Of a DNA stretch of 64,000 nt, positions 19,744 through 62,443 are shown piece by piece. Below the pieces are notes generated by a model. It did not search any database. It was given only the letters and a program-made list of their open reading frames with translations, and had not been told where the DNA came from. The position numbers and the translations under genes were made by a program. This DNA is from an uncultured Clostridia bacterium (GTDB lineage: Bacteria > Bacillota > Clostridia > TANB77 > UBA1234). The stretch is taken from the NCBI GenBank assembly GCA_934132775.1, contig CAKPAA010000006.1:1983-65982 (forward strand), read 5' to 3'. Numbering within the stretch: the first letter of the stretch is position 1; every line of letters starts with the position of its first letter.

Positions 19744-21138
19744 CTACCTAGACAATTCTGGATCTTGCATTGTTTCTTTTTCATCAAAATACTCAACTGT
19801 GCCGTCATTTACGCAATATAAAGCCAATTTAGAGTCTCTATCTTTATGTCCACACCCTGCATCTATTCTTACGAAGCCTCTTTTACTATCTATTAAGATT
19901 TTTCCTAATTGGGGATCATGTCCACAAATTGTTGTAAAGCCTTCTGTTTTTGCCAGCTCGTATGTGCTTCCTTCTCTTTCCTGTAACATAAACGTATATT
20001 GGTTCTCAGTTAATTCTGTGATTTTATAACCATTTCGTGATTGCTTCATTCGACGTATCAATTGAGGATCTTTTGGTGGCACAGAATGTACAAATAAATA
20101 ATCTTTACCATCAATATTTTTAGGTAATACAACATACGAATTCAATAAAAAATTATATATATCGCGTCGTTCCTTTAAAGTTTTAATTCGTCCCCCTGGT
20201 ACAAAATCAGAAAATGTGTCCTCTCCTTTATTCGATCTTATCCAAATGTCTATATTTTTCGCTTCTATCTCTGTTAACCCTTTTTCTTTAATCATTTCTT
20301 GATAAGCAACATCATACGGTGCAAATCTTTCTTCAACAACTTTTAGCTTTTCCGACTTACGATCCACACACCATCTGTATAGTTGATAAAGAGCATTTCT
20401 ATTATAAATAATCCAAACATCTTCTGGTTTCAGCCTTTTCGTTAGCATAGTAGTAACTGTTTCTATGAATTGCATTTCGTGATTTCCCAACAAAAAAGTA
20501 ATTTTTGGATTAGTCTGCTCATTTTGTTTTCTTTTCATAATATCTTGAAGTATTCGAATACCACCATTTCCTCTATCTATGACGTCTCCTAAAATAATTA
20601 AATGATCTTGTGGTGTCATTTTTTTCATTACTTCCATATATGATCCATACATTCCGTGAATGTCTCCAATTACGTATGTTTTGCCATTCTTACAATTAGA
20701 ATTCTTCGTATTCTGAAACATTCTTTCTTTTTCTTCAACCTGTAACTTTATGTTAGATAAGTTTTCATCAAAATTTTGTTGGCCTGTTTTTCCATTTGCT
20801 TGTACTATATAGCGATTAGCTGAATATTCTTTTTTACCAAATTCTCCACCTAAATAAATATAATCATCTCGACCTTCTTTATTCATTAACCCTTCTTCAC
20901 CTATCAATCTTTCAATAAAAAAATTATCAATACGTTTCTTACCACACACTTTCTCCAATTCTGTAGAGTCGTTAGTATTGTATCTAGAAAAAGTTTCTTT
21001 TTCGCAGAAAACTCTTATTGTTCTAATATCTCCTGTTTTCATTAAAAACTGTACATAATACATATCATATTTATCCAAATAAATATGACTATTCAACACT
21101 CTTGCGGCCTTAGCTTCTTCTCTTATTATATAACTCAT
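19744..21138 (-). CDS. calcineurin-like metallophosphoesterase with about 160-aa N-terminal extension of unknown function
   Basis: YVIGDIHGMYG...LILGDVIDRGNGG...GNHE are phosphoesterase motifs I-III. Likely start at MSYIIREE (ATG 21138). Confidence 0.65.
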   Translation of the reverse strand: MSYIIREEAKAARVLNSHIYLDKYDMYYVQFLMKTGDIRTIRVFCEKETFSRYNTNDSTELEKVCGKKRIDNFFIERLIGEEGLMNKEGRDDYIYLGGEFGKKEYSANRYIVQANGKTGQQNFDENLSNIKLQVEEKERMFQNTKNSNCKNGKTYVIGDIHGMYGSYMEVMKKMTPQDHLIILGDVIDRGNGGIRILQDIMKRKQNEQTNPKITFLLGNHEMQFIETVTTMLTKRLKPEDVWIIYNRNALYQLYRWCVDRKSEKLKVVEERFAPYDVAYQEMIKEKGLTEIEAKNIDIWIRSNKGEDTFSDFVPGGRIKTLKERRDIYNFLLNSYVVLPKNIDGKDYLFVHSVPPKDPQLIRRMKQSRNGYKITELTENQYTFMLQEREGSTYELAKTEGFTTICGHDPQLGKILIDSKRGFVRIDAGCGHKDRDSKLALYCVNDGTVEYFDEKETMQDPELSR

Positions 21139-21243
21139 AAAAATTCCCCCATTACAACCCAAATAACACCTATTCTTATTATACCACGACTTTACATAAA
21201 ATTCTACAATAAGAACCAAAAATGCAACGTGAAACTAAAAAAA

Positions 21244-27305: not shown

Positions 27306-27479
27306 AAAAACTCCTTTAACATCTATCTCTTTTTAATACTTATATTTTCCCATATTTTACGATTTTTACTACTAAAAACCTGCTTTTCATAGTATTTCGG
27401 TAGTAATTATAATATCTAATTCATACTTTGTCAATAGGAATTGAAATAGCAAAAAAAACAAACAAGTGTAAAAACCATA

Positions 27480-27508
27480 TTGACACATTATGTAAATGGT
27501 GATATACT
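27480..27508 (+). promoter_or_regulatory. sigmaA-type promoter P1 (TTGACA-17-TATACT with TGn extension), spacer carries TTATGTAAA motif
   Basis: TTGACA cattatgtaaatggtga TATACT. Followed by AAAGGAG RBS and a GTG start at 27541. Confidence 0.7.
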
Positions 27509-27540
27509 AAGCGTACCAAATAGAAAAGGAGTGAATCTAT

Positions 27541-27981
27541 GTGAGGATTCGGATTCGGGCCTCTAGGAAACATCAGAACAGTAGCATCTTTGGTGAAGAT
27601 GTGAAGATGCTGAAAAACGCCTGCAAGCACATTGCTGAGTACTATTTGCTTGGTGATGAAGACATCGATTCAGAGTCAACCAAACCAACATATGAGGATG
27701 CTTATATGTTGGCAAGGAGCGACAACTGGATTGGTAGCATCGAGGAAGCCTACCAGACGTTGCTCAGCATTTGGCGTGCTCGTGAGCCTCGAGAGGTCGA
27801 AAAAGAAAACGCACTTAGAGAAGAACAATTCTCGATGTGCGAGGATGCATTCGACGTCATCAAGGAACTCGAACGTGCACACAACGTTCAGGTTAAATGG
27901 GGTGGTATTTCAGACCCCGGAAACTGGTTCCTGAACGACACAGGTGGGAATCGAATCGGTCGCATTACCGTCGATTCCTAA
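27541..27981 (+). CDS. hypothetical protein, GC-rich (about 47% GC) orphan gene, opposite orientation to neighbours
   Basis: 146-aa ORF. AAAGGAG RBS 9 nt upstream of GTG 27541 (alternative ATG 27607). GC content far above the about 30% background. No recognisable motif. Confidence 0.6.
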   Translation: MRIRIRASRKHQNSSIFGEDVKMLKNACKHIAEYYLLGDEDIDSESTKPTYEDAYMLARSDNWIGSIEEAYQTLLSIWRAREPREVEKENALREEQFSMCEDAFDVIKELERAHNVQVKWGGISDPGNWFLNDTGGNRIGRITVDS

Positions 27982-27986
27982 AACAC

Positions 27987-28020
27987 AACAACCACAGATT
28001 TTTTAATCTGTGGTTGTTAT
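27987..28020 (+). terminator. stem-loop terminator after the GC-rich gene (AACAACCACAGAT/ATCTGTGGTTGTT)
   Basis: Perfect 13-bp inverted repeat immediately after the stop codon. The downstream T-run is weak. Confidence 0.5.
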
Positions 28021-28083
28021 CTTTACTGCACAAAGTGATTATAACAAAATTAAACTTTTAATATAAATTATTTAATACCATCA

Positions 28084-28587
28084 CTATTGTTGTTGATTTT
28101 CACTTATTACTTCTGCACTTTCAGTTTTTCCTGCTTTTTGATATTCATCTTTATTGAAACCTAAAATCATTAGGAATATTGGTTGCATAAAGAATAACCC
28201 TGTTGCAAATGCTCCACCGTGTCCAAAAGCTTTAGACAAACCATCACAGAATTTGCAATTAACGGCTATAAAATATATTAAATATATTAAATACAACAAT
28301 GCCGTTATTATTCCTAAAATTCCACTTGATGTAGCAGCTGCAATACTACCTAAAACAATAGATAATACAACTACAATTGCAGTAGCAACTACAAGTTCTA
28401 TAAAATTTCTGCCAGCAATTTTCCAAAGAATATAAGCATTATAAAAAGGAATAAGACTCTTCCATCCCTCTTCGCCTGCTTTTTCAAAAATCTTCCACTG
28501 TCCAATAACTAATGCAACATAAAAAAGTGTTGCAAACGTACTGTTTCCACCTAAAAACATTCCCATTAAATTTGAGCCATCGATCAT
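28084..28587 (-). CDS. hypothetical small membrane protein (3-4 TM helices)
   Basis: AAGGGGGAG RBS 6 nt upstream of the ATG giving MIDGSNL. Hydrophobic segments with WKIFEKAGEEGWKSLIPFYNAYILWKIAGR. Confidence 0.6.
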   Translation of the reverse strand: MIDGSNLMGMFLGGNSTFATLFYVALVIGQWKIFEKAGEEGWKSLIPFYNAYILWKIAGRNFIELVVATAIVVVLSIVLGSIAAATSSGILGIITALLYLIYLIYFIAVNCKFCDGLSKAFGHGGAFATGLFFMQPIFLMILGFNKDEYQKAGKTESAEVISENQQQ

Positions 28588-28651
28588 AAAATTCTCCCCC
28601 TTAATATCTTTTGTTATAAACACATTTTAATTTTATATAAACTGAAACTTC

Positions 28652-28680
28652 TTGTCAATATTTGGCGAAAGATTAAATTA
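28652..28680 (+). promoter_or_regulatory. putative promoter (TTGTCA-16/17-TAAATT) for orphan plus-strand transcript
   Basis: -35 TTGTCA at 28652. -10-like TAAATT. Located between two minus-strand genes. Confidence 0.35.
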
Positions 28681-28684
28681 GGCT

Positions 28685-28806
28685 TTTCTAAAATTTATAC
28701 TTCCAGTTCATCTAGCAGTTGCTTGTCCAGCGATGACTCATCCGGTCGTTGCTCTGGTGGTAGCGGGGGTAACTCTTGGTAATATACTTTTAACCACATA
28801 AATAGC
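28685..28806 (+). ncRNA. candidate small RNA or type-I-toxin-like sORF: GC-rich (about 55%) 90-nt segment between a promoter and an intrinsic terminator
   Basis: Segment catctagcagttgcttgtccagcgatgactcatccggtcgttgctctggtggtagcgggggtaactcttgg is much more GC-rich than its surroundings. Contains a 22-codon ORF with no SD (ATG 28734). Contains GGTGGTAGCGGGGG, resembling the T-box core. No long ATG-initiated ORF. Confidence 0.3.
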
Positions 28807-28855
28807 AAAGGCGAAAACTAAAAGTAGTTTTCGCCTTTATAACATTATTTTTTTC
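28807..28855 (+). terminator. rho-independent terminator (AAAGGCGAAAACTA/TAGTTTTCGCCTTT + T-run)
   Basis: Perfect 14-bp stem, 4-nt loop, then ataacattattttttt. The T-rich tail is on the plus strand only. Confidence 0.75.
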
Positions 28856-28937
28856 TACGTTCAGCGATTTGAAAAAGGACAAGACTCGTCCATACTCCAA
28901 TATCAAAGAAACAAAAATTCATTTAGCCAAAATAGTT

Positions 28938-29876
28938 CTATGCTGCACTAAAGCAAATAGTAAATTTTCTTCCATCAAAAAGATCTGGAGGAATTACAAG
29001 TTTAATTGGTATATGACTTATACTCTTATACTCCGCAATACTGTTTCTGTCATCTTCTCCATTTGGCCTCAAAACAGCATTGCTTATTTTTTCCCTTGCA
29101 TCACTGCATTTTTTCAGACTGCCGACAGCCTCTTTACCACTACTTGTGGAATTATCGCAATGGACAGAAACTGGCTTTGCTCTTTCAGAAATCTTTTCAC
29201 AAGCTGCAGGAACAGCAATTGAACTAGTCACTTTCTCTTTACGAAGTCTCCTATGATGCCTACAAAGAGTCTGATTTTCAGTATTAGTCTTTTCAGACAT
29301 TTCCTGTGTGGAAAGATCGGTAACCGTTTGCATATTTTCATTCTTTTCATGAGCATCATCATAAGATTTAGAAATAACAGATTGCCCTTCTTCTACTTTC
29401 TCACTAGGTTCTACCTTCTCACAATGATTTTCAAAAGTGGCAATATCTTCAAAACTAATGTGACGAACATATCTACGGCGTTTAGGCAAATCTATTGCAT
29501 CAACTACATTTGTAGCACTTTTCAAATTACATTCCGAAGGACTTTTAGGAGTATTAATACACATTATTCCAACTTCATCCTTAAAGAGTTCATCGGGTTT
29601 CATATTATCTTCATATTCTTCTTCATCTTCAACGTCATCTTCGACACCATAAATTTCTCTTCTAATTTTTCTCATTTTCATCTTTAAAAGAAAAGATTTT
29701 ACGTCTAATCCTTCAAAAAGCATATACATGCTGGTAGCAAAAAGATACAATGTGCCTAAATTAAGAACGAAAGCATACTTATCAGACAAATTGATAGCCG
29801 TAGAAATCCACATCATCATCGCGCAATAAAGCAACATGGAAACAGCAAAAATAGATTCCTTTTTATTATTACTCAT
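28938..29876 (-). CDS. hypothetical membrane protein (two N-terminal TM helices, acidic/Cys-containing C-terminal region), moderately GC-enriched
   Basis: AGGAGAA RBS 9 nt upstream of the ATG giving MSNNKK. TM segments IFAVSMLLYCAMMMWISTAI and AFVLNLGTLYLFATSMYMLF. About 38% GC. Confidence 0.55.
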   Translation of the reverse strand: MSNNKKESIFAVSMLLYCAMMMWISTAINLSDKYAFVLNLGTLYLFATSMYMLFEGLDVKSFLLKMKMRKIRREIYGVEDDVEDEEEYEDNMKPDELFKDEVGIMCINTPKSPSECNLKSATNVVDAIDLPKRRRYVRHISFEDIATFENHCEKVEPSEKVEEGQSVISKSYDDAHEKNENMQTVTDLSTQEMSEKTNTENQTLCRHHRRLRKEKVTSSIAVPAACEKISERAKPVSVHCDNSTSSGKEAVGSLKKCSDAREKISNAVLRPNGEDDRNSIAEYKSISHIPIKLVIPPDLFDGRKFTICFSAA

Positions 29877-30171
29877 AAATATCATTTCTCCTATTTTTAT
29901 TAACAATTCTTAGTTAATGCTTCTGACAACCAAAGTTTTATTACTTTTTTAAATAGGTTTTATAGTCTATTGTGAAATCGATATATATTTTTAAAATCCG
30001 CATCAGTCCATCTCTAATAAAAAATACAAACAGTAAGGTTAAATCTATATAAATTGCTAATCAGTAGCGCCTTTGCACCGATTGCAAGTAAAATTATTAA
30101 AACATTATTTGGCTTATTCAAGGTTGGTAAAAACACCTACCTTATGTAAAACTAATAAAAATAACAGTAAA

Positions 30172-30200
30172 CAGTATAATATGGTTTATGTAAATTGTCA
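30172..30200 (-). promoter_or_regulatory. sigmaA-type promoter P4 (TTGACA-17-TATACT) with TTTACATAAA spacer motif, pointing at 28938..29876 through a roughly 290-nt structured leader
   Basis: Minus-strand sequence TTGACA atttacataaaccatat TATACT. The leader contains a second TTTTACATAAGG copy and the hairpin AAGGTAGGTGTTTTTACCAACCTT. Confidence 0.55.
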
Positions 30201-30227
30201 ACCATAAAAACAAGTATTCGCAGATGA

Positions 30228-30282
30228 AACATAAAACATAAAACTAACAAGAATGTCTAGATTTCTGTTGATGTTTTATGTT
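30228..30282 (+). promoter_or_regulatory. operator-like inverted repeat AACATAAAACAT-N31-ATGTTTTATGTT overlapping the -35 of the 30385 gene promoter
   Basis: Perfect 12-bp arms. Central XbaI-like palindrome tctaga. The right arm abuts TGcTATAAT (30288-30296). Confidence 0.5.
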
Positions 30283-30296
30283 AATTGTGCTATAAT
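30283..30296 (+). promoter_or_regulatory. extended -10 promoter (TGcTATAAT) for gene 30385..30645
   Basis: TGTGCTATAAT with a weak -35. Followed by the 5' UTR hairpin CGGAGGcacggtCCTCCG (30344-30361) and an AAGAGGAGG RBS. Confidence 0.5.
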
Positions 30297-30384
30297 TAGA
30301 CTGTGTTTATAGACATTTGTATACCTTTGAAATGATTCTATTTCGGAGGCACGGTCCTCCGAAAATAAGAGGAGGAAAAAAACA

Positions 30385-30645
30385 ATGAAAAAATTTGCAA
30401 TCGACCTTAATTCAAAAGTAAAAGTTAAATTAACGAAAGCCGGAGTGGATGTGCTTCGCACACATTATATGATGTATAGACTTCCAGGCGCTCCGCAATT
30501 TAAAGTGTACACTGACAAGGATGGTTACTATGTAGCTACACTTTGGCAGCTTATGAATGCTTTTGGTGGATGTATGCTCTTAAACTCACCTTCTCTTTTC
30601 GAAGGTGATCTTGTCTTAATTGATGAGGATCAGTTCAAAGACTAA
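30385..30645 (+). CDS. hypothetical small protein (86 aa)
   Basis: Strong RBS AAGAGGAGG 8 nt upstream of the ATG. ORF followed by an intrinsic terminator. No recognisable domain. Confidence 0.6.
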   Translation: MKKFAIDLNSKVKVKLTKAGVDVLRTHYMMYRLPGAPQFKVYTDKDGYYVATLWQLMNAFGGCMLLNSPSLFEGDLVLIDEDQFKD

Positions 30646-30652
30646 AATGTAA

Positions 30653-30692
30653 TCGCCTAGTTAGCTTTATATGCTGACTAGGCGAACTTTTT
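30653..30692 (+). terminator. intrinsic terminator (TCGCCTAGT...ACTAGGCGA + TTTTT)
   Basis: 9-bp stem with a 15-nt loop, then actttttaa. Confidence 0.6.
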
Positions 30693-30896
30693 AATAAATT
30701 TAAAATTATTTTAAATGGAGCGATTTCGAAACAGGTATGCGAAAAAATGACTTACTTTGTTTCAAGCACTCTTATATAATTCGATTTATTGTTTATAATT
30801 TAACATAAATTATATCTTTTTACAAGATATAAAAATAAAAAACAGGAAAATTTTTTTTTACAAATTAATTATTATTTCAAAAAGGAGGTTATAATA

Positions 30897-31692
30897 TGCC
30901 AGAATTAAATGTTTTAAATCAAAAGATAACTTATATAAAAATTGATGATGAAGATTATATATCTATTACAGATATGCTTAAATCAAAAGATGGGGATTTT
31001 TTGTATCAGACTGGCTAAGAAATAGGAATACCATTGAATTTTTAGGCATTTGGGAAGAAATTCATAATCCTAATTTTAATTATGGCGAATTCGCCATAAT
31101 TAAAAGTCAAGCAGGTTTAAATAGCTATAAAATTAGTGTTAAAGAATGGACAGAAAAAACAAATGCAATTGGAATAATTTCAAAAGCTGGAAGATATGGA
31201 GGAACATATGCTCATAAAGATATTGCTTTTGAGTTTGGTATGTGGATTAGTCCAAAATTCAAGCTGTTATTGATAAAAGAATTTGAAAGATTAAAAGCAG
31301 AAGAACAAAAGCAAATAGGCTGGAATGCTAAAAGAGAACTTTCAAAAATTAATTATAGAATACATACAGATGCTATAAAGAAGAATTTAGTACCTAAAGA
31401 ATTAACTAAATTTCAAATAAACTTTGTTTATGCTGAAGAAGCAGATGTTTTAAATATGGCTTTATTTGGTATGACTGCAAAGGAATGGCATGATAAAAAT
31501 CCTAATTTAAATGGGAATATAAGAGATTATGCAACAATGAATGAATTGATATGCTTAGCAAATTTGGAAAATTTAAATTCTGTTTTTATAAATGAAAGAT
31601 TAAAACAAAGTGAAAGGCTTGAAAAATTAAATAAAATTGCAATTTCACAAATGCAAATTTTAAATGATACAGATATAAAATATCTAAAATAA
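30897..31692 (+). pseudogene. KilA-N domain (phage antirepressor-like) protein, frameshifted in a poly-T run near 31000
   Basis: AGGAGG RBS then MPELNVLNQKITYIKIDDEDYISITDMLKSKDGDF, ending in a stop at 31016. The next frame continues SDWLRNRNTIEFLGIWEEIHNPNFNYGEFAIIKSQAGLNSYKISVKEWTEKTNAIGIISKAGRYGGTYAHKDIAFEFGMWISPKF... into ORF 31240..31692. One T is missing from the run gattttttg. Confidence 0.7.
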
Positions 31693-31760
31693 TTATATTA
31701 AAAAAGAAAACTCCCACTTAAGTGAGAGAAAGATATATCTTTTTTGATGATGGCTTAAGC

Positions 31761-32108
31761 TTACTTCATTGTTGCACCAGAAACATTTATTGCCATAGAG
31801 TCACGGAACTGAATCATATCTTCCATTGAGAAGAAACTGAGGTAAACCTTGAGCTTGTGGTCTGCGTTGTGCATTTCCACTAGGTTAGCATTGCAACAAG
31901 CTGCCCACTTTAGAAGTGCTCTTGCTCTGTCAAATTCAACCTGCTTTCTATGGTTACTCTCCTTATCTCTCTTGGAAATAAACGATTCTTCTGCTTCGCC
32001 GATGGTCTGGTTCTTTACGATGAGAATCGGAGATTCAAGTGGGATAGATACCACGAGAACATATTCCTCAACCTTGGGTTTGGGTGATAAAATCTTAATG
32101 ATTGCCAT
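31761..32108 (-). CDS. hypothetical protein, GC-rich (about 42%) orphan gene
   Basis: 115-aa ORF. CAAGGAGG RBS. Consensus-type promoter P2 upstream. No recognisable motif. Confidence 0.55.
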   Translation of the reverse strand: MAIIKILSPKPKVEEYVLVVSIPLESPILIVKNQTIGEAEESFISKRDKESNHRKQVEFDRARALLKWAACCNANLVEMHNADHKLKVYLSFFSMEDMIQFRDSMAINVSGATMK

Positions 32109-32194
32109 AGTAATTCCTCCTTGGGCAGTTGCCCTGTCTAAAGTTGATTTTTCCTACATGATGAAACGGAGACCAGATTAGTTCATCACCTATA

Positions 32195-32223
32195 ATTATA
32201 TCATATTTTACATAAAATTGCAA
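32195..32223 (-). promoter_or_regulatory. sigmaA-type promoter P2 (TTGCAA-17-TATAAT with TGn extension), spacer carries TTATGTAAA motif
   Basis: Minus-strand sequence TTGCAA ttttatgtaaaatatga TATAAT. 12 of 17 spacer positions are identical to P1, including the 9-mer TTATGTAAA and tga before the -10. Confidence 0.65.
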
Positions 32224-32402
32224 TGAATTTTTTCGTTTGTACCCATTTTTGAACTAATTTATGTCAGATATCTCTAGTTTGTCTTATATTGAATTTTATT
32301 TTATTAGTAAATTTTCTAATAATAAATTTAAACACAAAAAAAGGGCGCACTAACCCTATTACAACCTCATGTGTCTTTTAATTTTATTTACGCTACTAAA
32401 CT

Positions 32403-33053
32403 TCATATATTTTCTTGTTTATTCTTTATATGTCCTTTTGCTATTGTTAGCATTACTATAAATGTTAGATTTAACATTATTTTCATACCTCTTTTACAAT
32501 TTTCTATTACTGGAACACCAATAACATGCATATGTGGAGATGTTTCATCAAAATGTATTGTTGCATTAGCTATTTTAAAAGTAGGTAGTATTTTAGATAA
32601 ATCTTGAATTTGCTCATTATATACATCAGTCATTTTAAATCTATATTCATCATCTTTATCTTGCCAAAAGTCCATATCTCCAAGTTCTATAATAATTTCA
32701 CAGGCAATATCATTTTGAGAATTACAAACTTTTTGAAAGTAATCTTTAACTTGTCTATCAGCTCTTGTCTTGCTATTATATTCAATTCTAATTTTTTCGA
32801 ATTCATCTAAATAGACTTGTTTAACATCTTCTACAATATCATTAGTTTCATAAATAGTAGTAATTAAATCTCTTTGATTATCGTAATCTCGTAAATTGTG
32901 TTTATTTACTCTTGGTAAATCATTTGCATTTTGAATAGCATTATTTGAAAGGGAAGTAGTTCCAGATACATTTCCTTTAGCTGTTTTTTTTGCTATTTTA
33001 CTTTTATTCTTATCACTACCCAAGTGAAAAGAATAGGCTAATTCTTGTTCCAT
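32403..33053 (-). pseudogene. mob: MobV-family (Pre/Mob) relaxase, truncated after the relaxase domain (about 217 aa instead of about 400-500)
   Basis: KHNLRDYDN, ACEIIIELGDMDFW and ATIHFDETSPHMHVIGVPV match MobM motifs I-III (HxDExxPHxH). AAGGAGGTG RBS before the ATG giving MEQELAYS. The ORF ends about 30 aa after motif III with non-Mob sequence. Confidence 0.65.
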
Positions 33054-33086
33054 TAAACGCACCTCCTTGAACTTTCTTCGAAGCAC

Positions 33087-33200
33087 AGGACTTTGACTTT
33101 GTCATAAGTCCTAACCTCCTATGAGTTATGACGTGCCATCATAACTCGGGGGCTCTGCGAGTCAATAAATTTTCTCCCAATGGGATAAAATTTATTCAAA
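33087..33200. promoter_or_regulatory. oriT-like region upstream of mob: adjacent hairpins AGGACTT-N12-AAGTCCT and GAGTTATGA-N7-TCATAACTC
   Basis: Two perfect inverted repeats immediately 5' of the mob start, as in pMV158-type oriT. Further downstream are TTGCAACA direct repeats (33262-33292). Confidence 0.5.
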
Positions 33201-33300
33201 TTACCTCACACAAAATTTATATTGCTAACGCAAATATAAATTTGTATTCGCCAATTTGCTTGTTGCAACATTGCATATAAAAAAGTAATAGTTGCAACAA

Positions 33301-35157
<1,857 letters not shown>

Positions 35158-35278
35158 TTTTCCATTTACAACCTCCTAAAAAAAAAACAAAGTGCTAGAA
35201 AGCCTTTGCTAACTAACACTTAAAAAATCTAATATTTACTTGTTATATTACTTGCTAAAAACAAAAAATCTTTTAGTA

Positions 35279-35575
35279 TTAGTTGCCATTGATAAAATCT
35301 CTTAATTTTGAGAGTGGATATTTATTTGCTAAATTGCCTATGCAAAAGTATTCGTGTTCATTAAAGAATAGATATAACTTGTCTTTAATGAATATTCTAT
35401 GAGGTTCTACATAAGCAATATTAGTTTTTTCTATCATTCTCAAATTACCATTCTTTATCTTTGGTTCACAATTACTAAAAGTGCAAGCCCATTCAATCTT
35501 AGAATGTAATTCTTTACTCATTGTTATTTCTCTTTTAACTGTAGATATCGTATCACAAAAACCTCCTTTTTTCAA
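35279..35575 (-). CDS. hypothetical protein (98 aa)
   Basis: ORF only. No clear RBS or motif. Lies between the recombinase and tRNA-Thr. Confidence 0.35.
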   Translation of the reverse strand: MKKGGFCDTISTVKREITMSKELHSKIEWACTFSNCEPKIKNGNLRMIEKTNIAYVEPHRIFIKDKLYLFFNEHEYFCIGNLANKYPLSKLRDFINGN

Positions 35576-35615
35576 TATTTTGAGGCTATTTTTCTACTTT
35601 ATGAAAATTTAAGGT

Positions 35616-35642
35616 AAAAAAATAAGCCGACTAAATCGACTT
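35616..35642 (-). terminator. intrinsic terminator downstream of tRNA-Thr (AAGTCGA-tttag-TCGGCTT + T7)
   Basis: 7-bp stem with one G-U pair, followed by ATTTTTTT on the minus strand. Confidence 0.5.
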
Positions 35643-35726
35643 ATATAAAGTGATACAATATTCACTTTTGTTTTCTTCAAACTCAATTATACCAATAATT
35701 ATAAGTAGTTCGACGAAAACGCATTA

Positions 35727-35802
35727 TGGAGCCAATGACAGGAATCGAACCTGCGACCTGCTGATTACGAATCAGCTGCACTACCGACTGTGCTACATTG
35801 GC
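35727..35802 (-). tRNA. tRNA-Thr (anticodon CGT)
   Basis: Minus-strand sequence GCCAATGTAGCACAGTCGGTAGTGCAGCTGATTCGTAATCAGCAGGTCGCAGGTTCGATTCCTGTCATTGGCTCCA folds as a cloverleaf. 7-bp acceptor stem, anticodon loop TTCGTAA, T-loop GGTTCGATTCC, encoded CCA. Confidence 0.9.
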
Positions 35803-35948
35803 ATTTTGGTGCATGACCTCGCTCACGCACCTATTATTATAAAGTTATTGTTTGTAAATTGCAATCACTTTTTTACACAATATAAAAGTAATGAATTTAG
35901 AAAACATACAAGTGTACAAAACTTCACATTTATAATTGATTATTATCC

Positions 35949-37379
35949 TTACTTTGTTAAATATTCTAGTATCAATTTATTTAGAATTTGTGGATTTCCT
36001 TTTCCTTTCATTTCTTTCATACATTGACCAACTAAAAATCCTAGTGCTCTGTCTTTTCCGTTTTTGTAATCTTCGACTGACTGTGGATTTGCTGCAATTA
36101 TTTTGTCTACTACTTCTTTTATTGCTCCCTCATCAGATATTTGTACTAGCCCTTTTTCTTCTACTATTTTTTCTGCGTCTTTGCCTGTTTCAACCATTTC
36201 TTCAAATACTTTTTTGGCTATTGAACCACTTATTATTCCTTTATCTATTAAAGTTATAAGCTTTGCAAATTGCTTTGGTGTGAATGGAAGTTCGTTATAT
36301 TCAATACCTTTTTCTCTTACTACTCTTATTATGTCTGTCATTATCCAGTTGCTTACTGCTTTTGCGTTTCCACATTCTTTTGTGGCTGCTTCGAAAAAGT
36401 CTGATAGGTGTTTTGATGAGGTTATTATTCCTGCATCATACTCTGGTAACCCTAGTTCTTCTATATATCTTGCTTTTCTGCTTTCTGGCAACTCTGGTAA
36501 TGTATCTTGAATATTTTTTATATATTCTTCTGTTAATCTTATTGGCATTAAATCTGGTTCTGGGAAGTATCTATAATCGTGTGCCTCTTCCTTTGTCCTC
36601 ATTGCATAGCCTTCTCCTGCCTCGTCGTCCCATCTTCTTGTTTCTTGATGTACAACTCCTCCTGATTCTAATACTTCTTTTTGTCTTTGTATTTCAAATT
36701 CTATACTTCTTGCTATTGCTCTGAATGAGTTTAAATTTTTAGTTTCTGTTCTTGTTCCGAACTTTTCACTACCTACTGGTCTTAATGATAAGTTTACGTC
36801 TGCTCTTAGTGAACCTTCTTGCATTTTACAGTCTGATACACCTATGTATTCTAGTATTCCTTTTAGTCTTTCAACATATGCAACTGCCTCTTCTGCACTT
36901 CTCATATCTGGTTCTGAAACGATTTCTATAAGCGGAACTCCAGCCCTGTTTAAGTCTACTAATGTTCCTCCTGTGTAGTTATCGTGAACAAGTTTTCCTG
37001 CATCTTCTTCTATGTGTATTCTTGTAATGCCTATGTCTTTCTTTTTACCATCAACAACTACATCGACGTGTCCGTGTTCGCAAAGTGGTAAATCAAATTG
37101 TGATATTTGATATGCTTTTGGAAGGTCTGGATAGAAATAGTTTTTTCTATCTTGTTTACTTTCTCTTGCTATCTCACAATTTGTTGCAAGACCTGCTCTT
37201 ACCGCATATTCAACGACTTTTTCATTTAACACAGGTAGTGCCCCTGGCATACCTGTACAAACTGGACAGCAGTGAGTGTTTGGTGCACTTCCAAACTCTG
37301 TTGAACAACCACAATATATTTTAGTTTTTGTTGATAATTCTGCGTGGACTTCAAGTCCTATTACTACTTCGTATTCCAT
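35949..37379 (-). CDS. gatB: Asp-tRNA(Asn)/Glu-tRNA(Gln) amidotransferase subunit B
   Basis: 476 aa. [24 protein letters not shown]-terminus. gatCAB gene order. Confidence 0.95.
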
Positions 37380-37382
37380 ATT

Positions 37383-38822
37383 TTACACCTCCTCATTTTG
37401 CTCATATGTATATGCTGCTTTCAATACTGTTTCTTCATTAAAGTGCTTTCCTATTAGTTGCATTCCTATTGGCATTCCCTCTTCATCTTTTCCACAAGGA
37501 ATTGATATTGCTGGCACTCCTGCGATATTTATTGAAACTGTTAATATGTCTGACATATACATTTCAAGTGGATTTGATATTTTTGAGCCTATATCAAATG
37601 CTACTGTTGGTGCGGTTGGAGTTAGTAATATATCGTATTTTTCAAAAGCTTCATCAAAGTTTTTCTTTACTATTGTTCTAACTTTCTGTGCTTTTTTATA
37701 ATAAGCATCGTAGTATCCCGAAGATAGAACATATGTACCAAGTATAATTCTTCTCTTAACTTCTTCTCCAAAACCTTCTGAACGGCTGTTTCTATATATA
37801 TCTGTTAATGTTTCATAATTCTTTGTTCTATATCCATATCTAATTCCATCAAATCTACCTAGGTTTGAGCTTGCTTCTGCACAAGCGATTATATAGTATG
37901 CTGGAAGTGCATATTCAGTTGCAGGAAGTGAACATTCCTCAACTTTTGCACCCATTTTTTCAAATTTTTCAATTGCAGTTTTTATTGCTTTTCTTACATC
38001 TTCACTAACGCCATCACCTAAGAATTCCTTAGGCACACCTATTTTCATATTCTTTACATCATTTACTAACGCTTTTGTGTAGTCTTGCTTTTCTATGTTT
38101 GCAGATGTTGAGTCCATCTTGTCGTGACCAGCAATAACATTTAACAAGTTTGCAATATCTGTAACATTTGTTCCCATTGGTCCAATTTGGTCAAGTGAAG
38201 ATGCAAATGCAACAAGTCCATATCTTGAAACTAGTCCATATGTTGGCTTTAATCCAACTATGCCACAAAATGAAGCTGGCTCTCTTATTGAACCACCTGT
38301 ATCACTTCCCAATGAAATTGGTGCTAGTCCACCTGCAACTGCCGCAGCGCTTCCACCAGAAGAACCACCTGGTACTTTATTTAAGTTTACTGGATTATGT
38401 GTTTTGAAAAATGCTGAATTTTCAGTTGAACCACCCATAGCAAATTCGTCCATATTAACTTTTCCTAAGATTATAGCTCCTGCTTCATTTAGCTTTTCAA
38501 TAACTGTCGCATCGTATGGTGGAATAAAGTTTTCAAGCATTTTTGAAGCGCAAGTTGTCTTTATTCCTTTTGTGCACATATTATCTTTTATTGCTATTGG
38601 AACACCTGCAAGTGGCCCCATTTTTTCGCCACTGTCATATCTTTTTTGCATTTCTTCAGCCTTATTCATAGCTTCTTCTTCGCATAATGTTATATATGCC
38701 TTTATTTTGCTATCTTCTGCTTTTATTTTTTCAAAATATGCTTTAACAACTTGTGGCACCGTTAATTCTTTTTTCTCATATTTTTCTCTTATTTCATATG
38801 CTTTTAAGTTTGTTATATCCAT
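37383..38822 (-). CDS. gatA: Asp-tRNA(Asn)/Glu-tRNA(Gln) amidotransferase subunit A
   Basis: Amidase signature [14 protein letters not shown]. 479 aa. Confidence 0.95.
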
Positions 38823-38833
38823 TTTCTCGCCTC

Positions 38834-39127
38834 CTAGTTCATCATACTTGGTAATGAATATGCTTCTCCATTGCTGCTTGGAGCATTTTTTAATAGCATA
38901 TCTCTGTCAAAAGATTCTCTTACTTCATCTTTTCTAAACACATTGTATGTATCTAGTGCAAAAGCAGATTCAGTAACACCAGCTGTATCTATCTCATTTA
39001 TTTTGTTTGCAAATCCAACTATATCTTGCATATTTGCTGTGTATTTTTCAATTTCTTCTTCTGTTAAGTTTAACATACTCAAATCTGCAATATGCTTTAT
39101 TTCTTCTTTGCTTATCATTTTTATCAC
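38834..39127 (-). CDS. gatC: Asp-tRNA(Asn)/Glu-tRNA(Gln) amidotransferase subunit C
   Basis: 97 aa. [22 protein letters not shown] is the typical GatC N-terminus. Confidence 0.9.
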
Positions 39128-39203
39128 TCCTTATTTTTTGAGGTCTATTCCCCAAAATCCTGCTTCATTATATATCAAATAATATAATTTTACAACCTAA
39201 AAA

Positions 39204-40949
39204 CTACGTTCTTAATTTTACGTGCACTTCTCTTAACAGTTTTTCTGTAACCTCACCTGGTGCCCCCATTAGCAAGTCTTCTGCATTTGCAGTCATTGGA
39301 AATGCAATTATTTCTCTTATGCATTCTTCATCAGATAGAAGCATTATTATTCTATCAACTCCTGGTGCCATTCCTGCGTGTGGAGGAGCTCCATATTGGA
39401 AAGCTTTATATAATGCTCCAAATCTCTTTTCTAATTCTTCCTTAGAGTATCCCGCAATTTCAAAAGCCTTTTCCATTATATCTATTCTATGATTTCTAAC
39501 TGCGCCAGAAGATAGTTCCACACCATTGCAAACAATATCGTATTGATATGCTTTTACATCAAGTGGATTTTGTTCTTCCAAGGCTTTTAATCCACCTTGT
39601 GGCATTGAAAATGGATTATGCATAAAATCTATTTTTCCGTCAATTCCTAACTCATACATTGGGAAATCTGTAATAAAGCAAAAGTCAAATCTGTCTTTAT
39701 CAATAAGTCCCATTCTGTTTCCAAGTTCTGTTCTTATTTGCCCTGCAAGTTTGTTTATAACGTATTTAGAATCTGAAATGAAGAATACTACATCTCCAAC
39801 TTTTAAATTCAATTTTTGTCTAATTTCTTCTGTCTGCTCAGGTGTAAAATATTTTGCTATTGGTCCTTTATAGCTACCATCTTCCTCAACTTCTATATAT
39901 CCCAAACCTTTCATTCCAATACTTAAAGCAAAATCTAACATTTTTTCAAAAAAAGATTTTGGCATTTTTGTACAATCATTAACAACAATTCCTCTTACTA
40001 ATTTTCCTTTAAAAGGCTTAAATTCAACATTTGCAAAAAAGTCTGTTAAATCCTCAATTAAAAGTGGATTTCTTAAATCTGGCTTATCTGAGCCATATTT
40101 TAGCATAGATTCTTCATAAGGTATTCTTACAAATGGTTTTGTGCTTATCTTTTTATCTGAGAATTTTGAAAAAACATCTGTTAAAACTTCTTCTGCCACA
40201 TCAAAAACATCTTCTTGTGTTGCAAATGCCATTTCAAAATCAAGTTGATAAAACTCACCTGGCGTTCTATCTGCTCTGGCGTCTTCATCTCTAAAACAAG
40301 GTGCAATTTGAAAATATTTGTCTATTCCAGACACCATAAGTAATTGCTTAAACTGTTGTGGGGCTTGTGGCAACGCATAAAATTTGCCTTTATGTTTTCT
40401 TGATGGAATTATATAATCTCTTGCTCCCTCAGGTGATGACGAAGTAAGAATTGGTGTTGTTATTTCTGTGAATTTCATACTTTCCATCTTTTTTCTTAAA
40501 TAGCTAACAACTTTTGACCTAAATAAAATTTTATCTTTTACTTTTTCATTTCTTAAATCCAAGTAACGATATTTTAAACGTACATCTTCTTTGGTTTTTA
40601 AAGATTCTTGAATTTCAAAAGGTAACACATTTTCGCATTCGCCTAATACTTCAATTGTTTCTGCAACAACTTCAACTAATCCAGTTTTAATATGTGGGTT
40701 AATTGTGTCCTCATCTCTTTTTATAACCTTTCCCTCAACTGATATTACAGTTTCTTTACAAAGTTTCTTTATTTCTTCTCCATCGTGTATAACAATTTGA
40801 GAAATTCCATATTGGTCTCTTAAATCTAAAAAAGTAACCCCACCGTGGTCTCTTATAGACTGAATCCAACCTGCCAATTTTACAACTTTTCCAATATCTT
40901 CTTCTGATATTTCATTGCAATTATGTGTTCTGTACTTAAATTTTTCCAT
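39204..40949 (-). CDS. aspS: aspartyl-tRNA synthetase (probably non-discriminating, co-operonic with gatCAB)
   Basis: Class II aaRS motifs FRDEDLRADRQPEF-like (FRDEDARADRTPGEF) and GGAPPHAG. AGGAGG RBS 9 nt upstream of the ATG giving MEKFKY (40949). Confidence 0.9.
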   Translation of the reverse strand: MEKFKYRTHNCNEISEEDIGKVVKLAGWIQSIRDHGGVTFLDLRDQYGISQIVIHDGEEIKKLCKETVISVEGKVIKRDEDTINPHIKTGLVEVVAETIEVLGECENVLPFEIQESLKTKEDVRLKYRYLDLRNEKVKDKILFRSKVVSYLRKKMESMKFTEITTPILTSSSPEGARDYIIPSRKHKGKFYALPQAPQQFKQLLMVSGIDKYFQIAPCFRDEDARADRTPGEFYQLDFEMAFATQEDVFDVAEEVLTDVFSKFSDKKISTKPFVRIPYEESMLKYGSDKPDLRNPLLIEDLTDFFANVEFKPFKGKLVRGIVVNDCTKMPKSFFEKMLDFALSIGMKGLGYIEVEEDGSYKGPIAKYFTPEQTEEIRQKLNLKVGDVVFFISDSKYVINKLAGQIRTELGNRMGLIDKDRFDFCFITDFPMYELGIDGKIDFMHNPFSMPQGGLKALEEQNPLDVKAYQYDIVCNGVELSSGAVRNHRIDIMEKAFEIAGYSKEELEKRFGALYKAFQYGAPPHAGMAPGVDRIIMLLSDEECIREIIAFPMTANAEDLLMGAPGEVTEKLLREVHVKLRT

Positions 40950-41098
40950 TTTATATTTCCTCCTTTTTTCAAGGGACGAAAAACTCAAAAACAAAAAAAT
41001 CCTAGTATTCTATAAAATACTAGGGACGAATTTTCCGTGGTACCACCCAAGTTTCAATACTCTTTTTAAAATATTAAACTCTAATACCACCATAACTA
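40950..41098 (-). promoter_or_regulatory. proximal T-box-like module: T-box core GGGTGGTACCACGG plus intrinsic terminator. Too short to hold a Stem I, so apparently a partial duplication of the distal element
   Basis: Minus-strand sequence AACTTGGGTGGTACCACGGAAAATTCGTCCCTAGTATTTTATAGAATACTAGGATTTTTTTG. Only about 105 nt lie between this and the distal terminator. Confidence 0.55.
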
Positions 41099-41099
41099 T

Positions 41100-41357
41100 G
41101 CATTACAAAAAGTCCTTAGTGTAAACTAATTTCTACACTAAGGACGAAAAATCATAATTCGTGGTACCACCTTATATTTTAATACTCTAAAAAGAATATC
41201 CTCTCTAGTTTTTAACGCAACCTCTGCGAACTTACTTTGCATAAGCCTGCTAGTAAGGTGTTCTTTCGTTAGTTTCAATTGCAATCACTCTCAGCTTAAT
41301 AATGCTTGCTCTCTTTAATCTACCTCTAATTACTTTTCCTTAATCAACGCATTTAAT
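41100..41357 (-). promoter_or_regulatory. T-box riboswitch leader (distal, full length) of the aspS-gatCAB operon, with its own terminator
   Basis: GA/K-turn-like AGAGAG near the 5' end. T-box core AAGGTGGTACCACGAA. Terminator CCTTAGTGTAGAAA-TTAG-TTTACACTAAGG + ACTTTTTG. A possible specifier AAC followed by A (GAAAGAACACC, plus 41258-41268) is tentative. Confidence 0.7.
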
Positions 41358-41363
41358 AGAAAA

Positions 41364-41391
41364 ATACTAGCACACATAAAAAACGTTGTCA
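41364..41391 (-). promoter_or_regulatory. sigmaA-type promoter of the T-box leader (TTGACA-17-TAGTAT)
   Basis: Minus-strand sequence TTGACA acgttttttatgtgtgc TAGTAT. Confidence 0.6.
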
Positions 41392-41514
41392 ATATATTTT
41401 TTGAATAATTATTGAAAGACTGAGCAGAGGTTTGTATTAAAGATAGAATTTGCTTTAAGAAGCTAAAATTATTTTTACAAACTGCCCAAGATTTTAATAT
41501 AGATTAAATAGTTC

Positions 41515-41561
41515 AAAAAATAGGATTCGAATCATTATTTTGATTCGAATCCTATTTTTAT
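41515..41561. terminator. bidirectional intrinsic terminator (TAGGATTCGAATCA/TGATTCGAATCCTA, flanking A6/T5)
   Basis: Perfect 14-bp inverted repeat with a 7-nt loop. Terminates the minus-strand GC-rich gene 41664..42434. Confidence 0.75.
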
Positions 41562-41663
41562 CAGAGACTTTTTACAGCCTCTCCTATTTCTAGTGTACAA
41601 ATTCTTGTGCACTCATGAACTAGTAGGTGTTTCTAAACTATCTAGCACCTATCTTCGAAAGTG

Positions 41664-42434
41664 TTACATTTGATTAGCTCTTTTCGAAGAATATTCCGAC
41701 ATCGCAGGAAAATGAAGTCCACGGCTATTTTTTTTCGTATGGACTTTCGAATAGCCTCCGTCAATCTCAGGATACATATACCCTGCAATCCCAAGTTTCA
41801 TCTCGCTAATCTTCTCCCTCGACAACATCGAGGTGCGCACAGCAAGCATGTAGTGCTCACAATTGCTGACGAAGAACACCGGATTACGCATATTCAGCGT
41901 CTGATATCCATCCGTAATCCACGAATACTTTTCGATGCGCTTCAGATTTCCTCTGTCACGCACCTTAGCGCAGCCACCACATTCATCAGATGCAGCAGAA
42001 AGCCGAGCACATTCCTTACCTGCAGATGCACAATAGTGCATCCTGCCAAGCTTGAAATGGTTCATGAAGTCGAGCTTTTCACAGCTCTTGTCCAACTCTG
42101 CCCAGTAGCAAATGCCACACTTCTTAATAATAAAGGCAGGCGCGGAAGTCTTGCGAAGCACTTTGAGTTCGTCCTTGTTAACCTTTTTGAGCTCATAGCG
42201 CTTATCTTTGCTCTCAGAGCTGAGCACTTCTTTCGAAACAATCGAAAGAGGTTTACCAGTTTTGGCACTGATTTCGACAAGAAGCCGACAGTCCTGCTCT
42301 TCCGAGCAGATAATCACCGCCGACATGTCATCTGCCACAATAACCTCTTTGCTTACCGTCATCTTCTCCCGCATTTCATGGACTTCCGATACTCCCTTTT
42401 GAATAGGAAACACAAACCCACTATCGCTCATAGA
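41664..42434 (-). CDS. hypothetical Cys-rich protein, GC-rich (about 50%) orphan gene inserted between the aspS leader promoter and asnS
   Basis: GGAGG RBS 8 nt before the ATG giving MSDSGFVFPIQKG. Cys clusters KKCGICYW...SCEK...HYCASAGKECARL...DECGGCAKV. Perfect consensus promoter P3 upstream. The opposite-strand ORF 41661..42629 lacks an RBS or promoter. Confidence 0.6.
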   Translation of the reverse strand, partial: SMSDSGFVFPIQKGVSEVHEMREKMTVSKEVIVADDMSAVIICSEEQDCRLLVEISAKTGKPLSIVSKEVLSSESKDKRYELKKVNKDELKVLRKTSAPAFIIKKCGICYWAELDKSCEKLDFMNHFKLGRMHYCASAGKECARLSAASDECGGCAKVRDRGNLKRIEKYSWITDGYQTLNMRNPVFFVSNCEHYMLAVRTSMLSREKISEMKLGIAGYMYPEIDGGYSKVHTKKNSRGLHFPAMSEYSSKRANQM

Positions 42435-42497
42435 CACGTTCCTCCTTCTTTGAGAAAAAAATCTCAAGTCATTATTAGTAATAGAGTTACAGACATT

Positions 42498-42526
42498 ATT
42501 ATACATTTTTATGTAAACATTGTCAA
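42498..42526 (-). promoter_or_regulatory. sigmaA-type promoter P3 (perfect TTGACA-17-TATAAT) with TTTACATAAA spacer motif
   Basis: Minus-strand sequence TTGACA atgtttacataaaaatg TATAAT. Confidence 0.7.
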
Positions 42527-42650
42527 TTATATTTTTCGAAAAATAAAGAAGATGCATTTTTTTCTACATCTCCTTTGGATTTTCATGTTAAACCATTTAA
42601 ATTTTTCAAAACTAGGCTTACTTTTATAGTTTACTTCTAATAAAATCAGA

Positions 42651-45061: not shown

Positions 45062-45296
45062 CCCACATACTCCTTTTTTTCTAAGTATTCTACATAATTT
45101 AATTGGTTATTCCCTAGGCTTATGTGTACCATCAGTTATCTTTAGTATATTTCTACGTACCTTAATGTTATTTATTACTTCGTTTTTCGACAAACCTATT
45201 TTATACAATTACATCACATAATGCAAGTATTTTTTTGTAATTTTTTATGTAAAATTTATTTTTTTACAATACTTTGAATTTTAGAAGTTGTTTCGC

Positions 45297-61943: not shown

Positions 61944-62443
61944 TGTACTATTTCCTCCTGTAATAATATTTTTTTGCTTATAGTACATTAGTAGAAAGAA
62001 TTTTTTAACTTGTTTATTAGCACAAATACTGCACTAATAATCAGATTCAGAAATTACTTCTTCCTCCTTTATAGTAATATAAACAGCATACAAATTATAA
62101 CATCAATTAACAATTTTGTAAAGATTATGTAAAATAGTTTCTTAGATTCATAATAAACTTCTACCTTCCATATTGAACTCACTTTCGGAAATAGAAATTA
62201 CTTTTGCAAGTTGTCATTTAAATAATACAGCCAAAATACATTTTAATCTCAAATAACTAAAATTGAAAAAATCGCTCATAAATAATGCACATTTCAAATT
62301 TTATCTAACCGTAAATTTGTTGTTGTTTACGAGTTGACTTTTTATAGCTTTTACGTTAATATAAGCTTTGTGTAAATGCCAAGTCATTCAGGTATTTACG
62401 CAAATCATTTACAGAATTTGATAAAAAAGGAGAGTTATTATAA

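Follow-up and report, generated by a model that had tools for sequence, protein, structure and literature searches.

The 64,000-nucleotide stretch analysed here (the window) belongs to contig CAKPAA010000006.1 of an uncultured Clostridia bacterium, and four of its promoters, P1 to P4, carry the short AT-rich motif TTTA(CA/TG)TAAA in the spacer between the -35 and -10 boxes. The position of this motif within promoters, its conservation between species and its distribution among genomes indicate that it is very probably a real promoter element, maintained by selection and common to the clade. The promoters that carry it preferentially drive short, monocistronic, GC-richer and rapidly evolving orphan genes. 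As to its role, we tentatively propose that the motif may be the operator of a repressor conserved across the clade.

The spacer motif and its conservation

P1 (27480-27508, + strand) reads TTGACA-CATTATGTAAATGGTGA-TATACT, with an extended -10 TG; P2 (32195-32223, -) reads TTGCAA-TTTTATGTAAAATATGA-TATAAT; P3 (42498-42526, -) reads TTGACA-ATGTTTACATAAAAATG-TATAAT; and P4 (30173-30201, -) reads TTGACA-ATTTACATAAACCATAT-TATACT. A sequence-only reading of this DNA had described them as four near-consensus sigmaA promoters with 17-bp spacers, and all four can indeed be read directly, with P4 shifted by one base. The spacer is 17 bp in each, the -35 box of P2 has two mismatches to the consensus, and each promoter lies upstream of an open reading frame (ORF) with a Shine-Dalgarno sequence. 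Judged by the usual features of sigmaA promoters (a near-TTGACA and a near-TATAAT hexamer, a spacer of 17 +/- 1 bp and a gene with a ribosome-binding site (RBS) downstream), P1-P4 read as genuine members of this type. The motif, with the core TTAYRTAA, is centred at about -22/-23 in the 17-bp spacer and lies at 32207-32216 in P2, 42508-42517 in P3 and 30185-30194 in P4. The exact 10-mer TTTAYRTAAA, which had been claimed for all four promoters, is found in these three, whereas P1 has a 9/10 match (ATTATGTAAA, 27487-27496, +). The element was also called palindromic, which is correct for its symmetric 4-bp arms (TTTA/TAAA) but not for its asymmetric CA/TG centre, and it is better described as a pseudo-palindrome. 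The P1 and P2 spacers are identical at 12 of 17 positions, as had been stated. Outside the -35 box, the motif and the -10 box, P1-P4 are unrelated, and both the offset (1-3 nt) and the orientation of the motif vary.

A fifth motif promoter (21178-21200, -) consists of TTTATGTAAA-GTCGTGG-TATAAT (TTTATGTAAAGTCGTGGTATAAT); its -10 is extended and its -35 weak, it lies ahead of a Metallophos gene (19744-21219) and it is kept in the conspecific contig L005. Near variants of the motif lie within spacers at 30268 (+), 50322 (-) and 52246 (-). The promoter of the suf operon (27406-27434, -), divergent from P1, provides an internal control, being a perfect consensus promoter that lacks the motif. Despite the earlier remark that near-consensus promoters are unusual for accessory genes, such promoters are nothing out of the ordinary in this genome. 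Two other interpretations of the spacer were rejected: a MerR-type spacer operator needs a spacer of 19-20 bp and those found here have 17 bp, and inspection revealed no -10 at the distance needed for the TTTACA of the motif to act as a second -35 or as part of a divergent promoter.

The further sequences that had been grouped with the motif as related proved to be heterogeneous. A second copy in the P4 leader, at 30142, is lost in the sister species; the copy at 62125 lies upstream of a -35 box and not in a spacer; and the repeat at 30228/30268 is a separate element. This last is a 15-nt inverted repeat (30228-30242 and 30268-30282) with 93% complementary arms 25 nt apart, probably a separate operator that is distinct from the motif. 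With its right arm it overlies the -35 and the beginning of the spacer in a promoter, TTGATG-17-TATAAT (30268-30296), that serves an 86-amino-acid (aa) gene (30385-30645), and the whole gene is absent from the sister species. Another copy of TTTATGTAAA (45244-45253) lies between xerD-like and spoIIM genes, with flanks that are identical in loci L001 and L003; it is outside any recognisable -35/-10 pair, about 30 nt upstream of a TTGCAT-17-TAAAAT promoter.

Counted over the window as a whole, the motif is in modest excess. TTTAYRTAAA occurs 7 times, compared with 2.5 times in shuffled sequences (one of 100 shuffles reaches 7), so the earlier estimate of less than one chance copy was too optimistic, and the 8-mer core occurs 22 times with 15 expected. 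Unlike this whole-window excess, the positional signal is strong: the core is found in the spacer of three of the eight window sites with at most one mismatch to TTGACA-17-TATAAT, for which P is about 2e-6, given a probability of 0.0035 for the core in a random 17-mer of the window. P2 and the fifth site add further motif-bearing promoters to these three.

Comparison between species points in the same direction. Across the -35, spacer and -10 of P3, 39 of 39 bases agree with those of an orthologue at 65% protein identity. In the sister species, P1 reads TTGACG-CATTATGTAAACGGTGT-TATACT, with both spacer changes outside the motif and the upstream flank scrambled, while P4 keeps its -35, nine of the ten motif bases and its -10, with three of the seven other spacer bases changed. 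Across the family of g2, the gene behind P2, the promoter core ATTTTATGTAAA(A)TATGR-TATAMT persists down to an aa identity of 59%, whereas the -35 drifts (TTGCAA, TTGACA, TTTACT), the upstream flank is unrelated and the leader changes; in this family the motif also slides by one base, and a compensating change preserves the 17-bp spacer. In the family of g3, the gene behind P3, functional promoters follow the scheme (A/T)TTGACA-NNN-TTTACATAAA-NNNN-TATAAT, in which the Ns are variable, and six distinct functional promoters have changes at 2 of 60 motif positions versus 15 of 42 flanking spacer positions (Fisher p = 2e-5). In a pseudogenised g3 copy, the motif is degraded to TTTACTCAAG. The motif is thus conserved beyond the neutral expectation and independently of the hexamers bound by RNA polymerase, and, as it is kept far better than the adjacent spacer bases within families, selection and not inheritance alone appears to maintain it.

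The genome-wide search that had been proposed for the motif was extended to 185,579 species genomes, one per species, with the pattern TTGACA-N1-3-TTTAYRTAAA-N4-6-TATAMT, and gave at least 119 loci. Among the matches listed, to which the following figures refer, 98 of the 119 loci have Clostridia-class labels, mostly in uncultured gut metagenome-assembled genomes (MAGs) from humans, rabbits and ruminants, and the few hits outside the Firmicutes mostly have a TA centre or the wrong spacer length. The pattern allows spacers of 15-19 bp, of which one third would be expected to have 17 bp, and the spacer is exactly 17 bp in 111 of the 123 sites (p = 1e-39); these matches must therefore be promoters and not random occurrences. 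The centre of the motif is TG in 55 sites, CA in 42, TA in 24 and CG in 2, although TA should dominate by composition, and it does so in a control search of 2.9 million viral contigs with the same pattern (TA 42, CA 17, TG 9; Fisher p = 4e-8). Several MAGs give three to five exact hits, and hits also cluster within a few kb.

The enrichment is also seen away from the sites used to find the loci. Among 150 near-consensus promoters of these loci that were not used for ascertainment, 12 have the core, with 1.1 expected by shuffling. After masking, the 10-mer does not outnumber control 10-mers in the scan loci, but 10 of its 27 leftover copies are in a promoter context, compared with 0-9% for the control 10-mers, excepting one (TTTAACTAAA) with one of its three sites in such a context. 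The motif appears to mark a subclass, amounting to a few per cent, of the strong promoters throughout AT-rich gut Clostridia. In the literature, we found only incidental occurrences of the motif strings, in primers or eukaryotic sequences.

Genes behind the motif promoters

As the sequence-only reading had noted, P1-P3 stand before GC-rich orphan genes (41-48% GC, compared with 32%). These are g1 (27541-27981, +; 146 aa, GTG start, GC content 0.478, GC content at third codon positions (GC3) 0.53), g2 (31761-32108, -; 115 aa, GC 0.414) and g3 (41664-42431, -; 255 aa, Cys/His-rich, GC 0.458), while P4 serves g4 (28938-29876, -; GC 0.346), which encodes a membrane-anchored orphan protein of 312 aa and has a leader of about 290 nt; the GC content of the window is 0.321. 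The GC excess is limited to the single ORF, and terminator hairpins follow g1 (27981-28024, 20-nt arms) and g3 (41516-41559, perfect, 19-nt arms). Searches of g1-g4 and several GC-rich units of other MAGs against Pfam, PHROGs, PADLOC and NCBIfam gave no informative family, and an exhaustive HMMER search with g1 found only 3 representatives among 1.84 billion cluster representatives. The possibility that the GC-rich segments are non-coding RNAs was rejected, given that the window has no Rfam hit except one tRNA, that g3 shows codon periodicity and protein-level homology and that the g2 family has a confident structure model; g1, g2 and g3 all code for proteins. Long ORFs also run antisense or out of frame to g3 (41661-42629, +), g1 (27632-27934, +) and g2 (31849-32181, +), and these three are most likely not genes but artefacts, stop codons being scarce in GC-rich sequence.

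The association with GC-rich genes is replicated in other genomes. Within AT-rich loci, the first ORFs downstream of motif promoters were set against those downstream of non-motif consensus promoters in the same loci. The mean GC content above that of the locus is +0.047 for motif and +0.016 for non-motif promoters (Mann-Whitney p = 3e-4), and 26% versus 6% of the first ORFs exceed their locus by at least 0.08. A terminator is found within 120 nt after the stop codon in 52% versus 27% of cases (Fisher p = 0.003), and the median ORF length is 144 versus 180 aa (p = 0.04). The GC island spans just one ORF in all cases examined. The GC3 of the GC-rich genes is 0.46-0.53, compared with approximately 0.2-0.27 for the genome, so their GC richness cannot stem from amino acid content. 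The sister-species orthologues have lower GC contents (0.43 for g1 and 0.41 for g3), a difference that slow amelioration following transfer from a donor richer in GC might explain.

Genes g1, g3 and g4 evolve extremely fast at fixed chromosomal positions. Conspecifics hold g1, the DUF5684 gene, g4 and the 86-aa gene; g1 is syntenic between sufC and the DUF5684 gene, and in the sister species g1, the DUF5684 gene and g4 are syntenic. Nevertheless, the protein identity between the two species is only 53% for g1, 65% for g3 and 45% for g4, compared with 99% for SufB, 96% for SufC, approximately 98% for AsnS and approximately 96% for AspS. Two side observations concern the starts and leaders of these genes. 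A minimal ATG-TGA start-stop (ATGTGA, 27539-27544) overlaps the GTG start codon of g1, and the sister species (L146) has kept this arrangement. The g4 leader contains a block of about 49 nt (ACTTGCAATCGGTGCAAAGGCGCTACTGATTAGCAATTTATATAGATT, 30044-30092, -) that is near-invariant between species, while the remainder of the leader and the protein (45% identity) diverge around it; the predicted fold of this block is unremarkable (z = -0.9), and it has no Rfam match.

Although P3 and g3 had been assigned to the island with the others, g3 sits between asnS and aspS in every relative found, outside the island. Its differences from its orthologue are distributed over the three codon positions as 56/52/98. 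Three close homologues of g3 were known at first, and more distant ones were found later: two loci retrieved by the promoter pattern alone encode g3 homologues (35% identity, E = 1e-33 and 1e-26), and a metagenome search with the family alignment gave six more loci. The contexts of these homologues are unrelated, including an IS200 transposase with a polysaccharide biosynthesis gene, PBP5, RsmF with an AMP-binding enzyme, and GNAT. Thus, past movement of the g3 family may have occurred. The structure model of g3 was too poor for use (predicted local distance difference test score (pLDDT) 37). A short hairpin directly upstream of the RBS of g3 (42450-42467, -) recurs in loci L064, L140, L142, L143 and L144, with arms that differ yet remain complementary (TTGAGA/TCTCAA, GAGAT/ATCTC, TAGAT/ATCTA), and in most members it is followed by CCAATAA(T/C)AAGGAGG; it is a possible leader element. 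The copy at L142:2869-3492, next to an IS200-type transposase, has an internal stop and a GC content down to 0.31, and the gene, its GC excess and its motif (TTTACTCAAG) appear to decay together.

The remaining gene, g2, is the only one of the four on a mobile element; g1, g3 and g4 are chromosomal and have no cassette boundaries. P2 and g2 belong to a decayed integrative mobilizable element (IME; 30722-35723) that adjoins a tRNA gene (35730-35802), g2 being its last gene. The element is about 5 kb long and comprises genes for a large serine recombinase (Resolvase+Recombinase) and a Mob_Pre relaxase, as well as KilA-N and g2. In the window copy, the recombinase lacks part of its N terminus and is split (34280-34990 and 33301-34302), the Mob_Pre relaxase is truncated and the KilA-N gene (30897-31692) is frameshifted, while g2 and its promoter are intact. 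In comparison with the conspecific contig L005, which is 97.6-99% identical, only 30722-35723 is an insertion, and L005 has a RelB/YoeB segment in its place. The same IME is found intact in many other contexts with a g2 homologue as its terminal gene. The g2 family comprises 33 clusters, and its model has a confident ferredoxin-like alpha/beta fold (pLDDT 85) that is uninformative as to function. The leader of g2 contains a hairpin (32160-32188, -), also found in loci L011-L016, with apparently compensatory changes between elements (GATGAAAC...GTTTCATC in one case and GATGTAAC...GTTACATC in another), and a second small hairpin abuts the RBS.

Around g1, g2 and g3, we found no attC-like sites, terminal repeats or convincing target duplications; the repeats there are AT-rich repeats at chance level and the terminators. 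Likewise, searches of 2.9 million viral contigs (IMG/VR) gave no member of the g2 or g3 family.

Possible roles of the motif

In the interpretation that we favour, though its probability falls slightly short of even, the motif would serve as operator for a DNA-binding protein that is encoded in the chromosome and conserved throughout the clade; binding, repression and co-regulation are what we infer from sequence. The protein bound in the spacer would block RNA polymerase at promoters that are otherwise constitutively strong, and the accessory genes behind them would be switched together. A repressor is proposed because such strong promoters need one for regulation, and, given the positional slack of approximately 1 bp and the use of both orientations, occlusion fits better than a directional or fixed contact with RNA polymerase. 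A shared operator had already been suggested by the sequence-only reading, and it remains the best single explanation, but not as the regulon of one island or one mobile element, since the same architecture is found in about a hundred other Clostridia genomes before very diverse genes. Among the genes behind motif promoters are three that encode small Xre helix-turn-helix proteins, two that encode ArsR proteins, two that encode stand-alone Spo0A C-terminal domains and many without any family. As a separate observation, the two Spo0A C-terminal (DNA-binding) genes (L134:5079-5567 and L139:6500-7000) have no receiver domain, are 43% identical to each other and are both single-gene GC islands (0.37 in a locus of 0.28 for L134; 0.55 in a locus of 0.32 for L139).

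A related sequence does look like an operator in one case. In three Lachnospiraceae genera, a gene for an Xre-family protein of 66-69 aa has the motif in its promoter spacer (L067:5719-5985, L098:6218-6506 and L123, - strand, 4177-4380), along with three direct (A/G)TGTAAA repeats at -12, +11 and +34 from the start of the -35, exactly 23 bp apart, of which the middle one is the spacer motif. This triple repeat looks like an autoregulatory operator array. Homologues of these small Lachnospiraceae Xre proteins were found neither in the window nor in any locus.

Several points weigh against the operator. No candidate for the cognate DNA-binding protein is encoded near P1-P4, and we found no extra motif copies at a fixed distance from the promoters, each of which has a single 10-bp site. 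The perfect palindrome TTTACGTAAA is present in only 2 of the 123 sites among the matches listed, the centre being asymmetric. Housekeeping genes such as rpsJ, ftsH and rny are also found behind motif promoters. The layout of a T-tract followed by an A-tract is enriched approximately 3-4-fold in spacers for three of the four classes of central step (AG/CT being the exception), and this enrichment, which is not specific to CA/TG, hints at a structural component. Furthermore, the scan was ascertained on exact consensus hexamers, which makes its prevalence figures rough, and the control promoters come from loci that were chosen for holding a motif promoter. Taken as a whole, the explanation that combines a selected, clade-wide element with the operator of a repressor is the best that we can offer, and we consider it equally probable that it is right or wrong.

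Owing to these counterpoints, the main rival, an element intrinsic to the promoter, keeps a substantial share of the probability, although we consider it unlikely. According to this explanation, a spacer made of T- and A-tracts with a deformable CA/TG step near -22 would set promoter strength without a regulator, either by tuning the geometry of the spacer or by being read by the RNA polymerase of the clade. Such an element would fit the near-equal use of both orientations, as the duplex is the same both ways with the CA/TG step at its centre. It would also fit the tight coupling to exactly 17-bp spacers and consensus hexamers, the presence of the motif before housekeeping as well as accessory genes, the enrichment of the T3...A3 layout in motif-free spacers (8 versus 1.9 expected) and, in the sampled loci, the fact that between a quarter and almost half of the strong promoters of some MAGs have the motif. 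However, a contact with RNA polymerase or a phased bend would be expected to have a fixed position, and the offset of the motif varies over 3 bp. Moreover, between the tracts of non-motif spacers, CA/TG is no more enriched than GA/TC or AC/GT, so that it is the specific sequence that stands out and not the type of step, and TA, which is equally flexible, is under-used relative to composition. The motif is found in a minority of promoters, the perfect suf promoter lacks it, and its link to GC-rich monocistronic genes would be left unexplained. As a general rule, a central CA/TG "hinge" was rejected as unsupported beyond the specific motif.

An extension of the operator interpretation, which we regard as improbable, is that a repressor regulon of the clade might silence horizontally acquired, GC-rich, fast-evolving single-gene units, a kind of chromosomal "morons", as a dedicated layer of control over foreign or arms-race genes; such a regulon would act through the promoter-embedded operator carried along with each unit, and not through the xenogeneic silencing of AT-rich DNA.

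Common descent, with a promoter module carried about by mobile single-gene cassettes and the motif as a passenger without function, seems more improbable still. The g2 and g3 families do keep their own promoters in unrelated contexts, the genes are single-ORF GC islands with their own terminators, and g2 is located on an IME. Within each gene family, the earlier proposal of an inherited cassette promoter stands, but it does not extend across P1-P4, as only the -35, the motif and the -10 are common between families, with differing offsets and orientations. Even within families, inheritance alone does not explain why the motif outlasts its neighbouring spacer bases, and the synteny of g1, g3 and g4 in the sister species, the lack of cassette-type boundaries around g1, g2 and g3 and the absence of the g2 and g3 families from the viral contigs all argue against mobile cassettes.

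To our knowledge, the sites of Spo0A, WalR, PhoP, TnrA, cre, Rex, PerR and BlaI/CopY and the DnaA box offer no convincing fit to the motif. Among the global regulators of low-GC Firmicutes, of which the motif might be a degenerate site, CodY is the most plausible, yet we consider this very unlikely. The CodY box is the 15-bp AATTTTCWGAAAATT (PMC5314169), to which AATTTTATGTAAAAT in the P2 region is a 12/15 match, and both it and the motif are AT-rich palindromes that overlap promoters in low-GC Firmicutes. Nevertheless, the symmetry and the core differ: the CodY box has an odd-length C-W-G centre, whereas the motif has an even YR centre. The enriched spacer 6-mers that contain G or C (TTATGT, ACATAA, CATAAA and TATGTA) are not CodY-like and include neither TTTCAG nor CTGAAA, the positions conserved in the footprints are those that differ from the CodY consensus, and hits in Bacilli, which have CodY, are rare among the matches listed. 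Finally, a chance resemblance among AT-rich spacers is hardly credible, for, although the 10-mer is AT-rich and its whole-window excess is modest (7 versus 2.5; 22 versus 15), this explanation is contradicted by the positional enrichment, the footprints, the restriction to the clade, the bias in the central bases and the viral control.

Known systems and biological meaning

Repressor operators within or across the -35/-10 spacer of sigma70/sigmaA promoters are familiar from lac, tet and phage systems and from the "TACAnnTGTA" boxes of CopY/BlaI. The motif resembles them in being a short AT-rich (pseudo)palindrome inside a consensus promoter that is conserved apart from the rest of the spacer and tolerates a shift of approximately 1 bp. 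In contrast to these operators, it comprises one site, with 4-bp arms and one G:C pair, for which both orientations occur, and its spread covers a whole bacterial class and very diverse genes instead of one operon or element. Another conserved sequence within the sigmaA spacer is the "-16 region" TRTG, or extended -10, of Gram-positive promoters, reportedly described by Helmann in 1995 and by Voskuil and Chambliss in 1998. TRTG is visible at spacer positions 13-16 in the promoters of the scan loci, but the motif is further upstream (spacer positions approximately 2-12), can have either orientation and a shift of 1-2 bp, and is limited to a few per cent of promoters.

The genes behind the motif promoters can be compared with phage morons, which are transcribed independently, between a promoter and a terminator of their own, and deviate in GC content (PMC3594210). 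Similarly, g1, g2, g3 and many units of other MAGs each consist of one ORF that has a strong promoter and a terminator to itself and a GC content 0.08-0.2 above that of its surroundings. However, these units are located between housekeeping genes or on an IME and not in prophages, the synteny of g1 and g3 extends across species, no member of the g2 or g3 family was found in IMG/VR, and a promoter-embedded motif common to the units is not a described feature of morons. As for the element that carries g2, it resembles IMEs of the Tn4451/Tn4453 type, which have a large serine recombinase and a MobV/Mob_Pre relaxase (PMC5704250), in its Resolvase+Recombinase and Mob_Pre genes, its small size, its many sites and, in one relative, the presence of a TnpV gene. 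It differs from them in that it has no resistance cargo, it includes Bro-N/KilA-N genes and a terminal g2 orphan, and the window copy is degenerate.

The motif is best filed as a promoter-embedded element of the operator type whose association with moron-like orphan genes that evolve fast is unusual and reproducible. Uncultured Clostridia with small genomes are abundant in human and animal guts, yet the control of their transcription is hardly explored, and here is a motif that can be found by sequence alone and that marks promoters with single-base precision in about a hundred species, offering an entry point to a regulator and its set of targets. It also flags a coherent class of genes, the short, stand-alone, GC-rich and very rapidly diverging orphans exemplified by g1 and the g3 family. 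The protein identities of 45-65% in this class, next to neighbours with 96-99%, suggest that these genes may have functions in conflict or in adaptation to a niche. Even if the element turned out to be intrinsic to the promoter, it would provide a useful design rule for strong promoters in these organisms.

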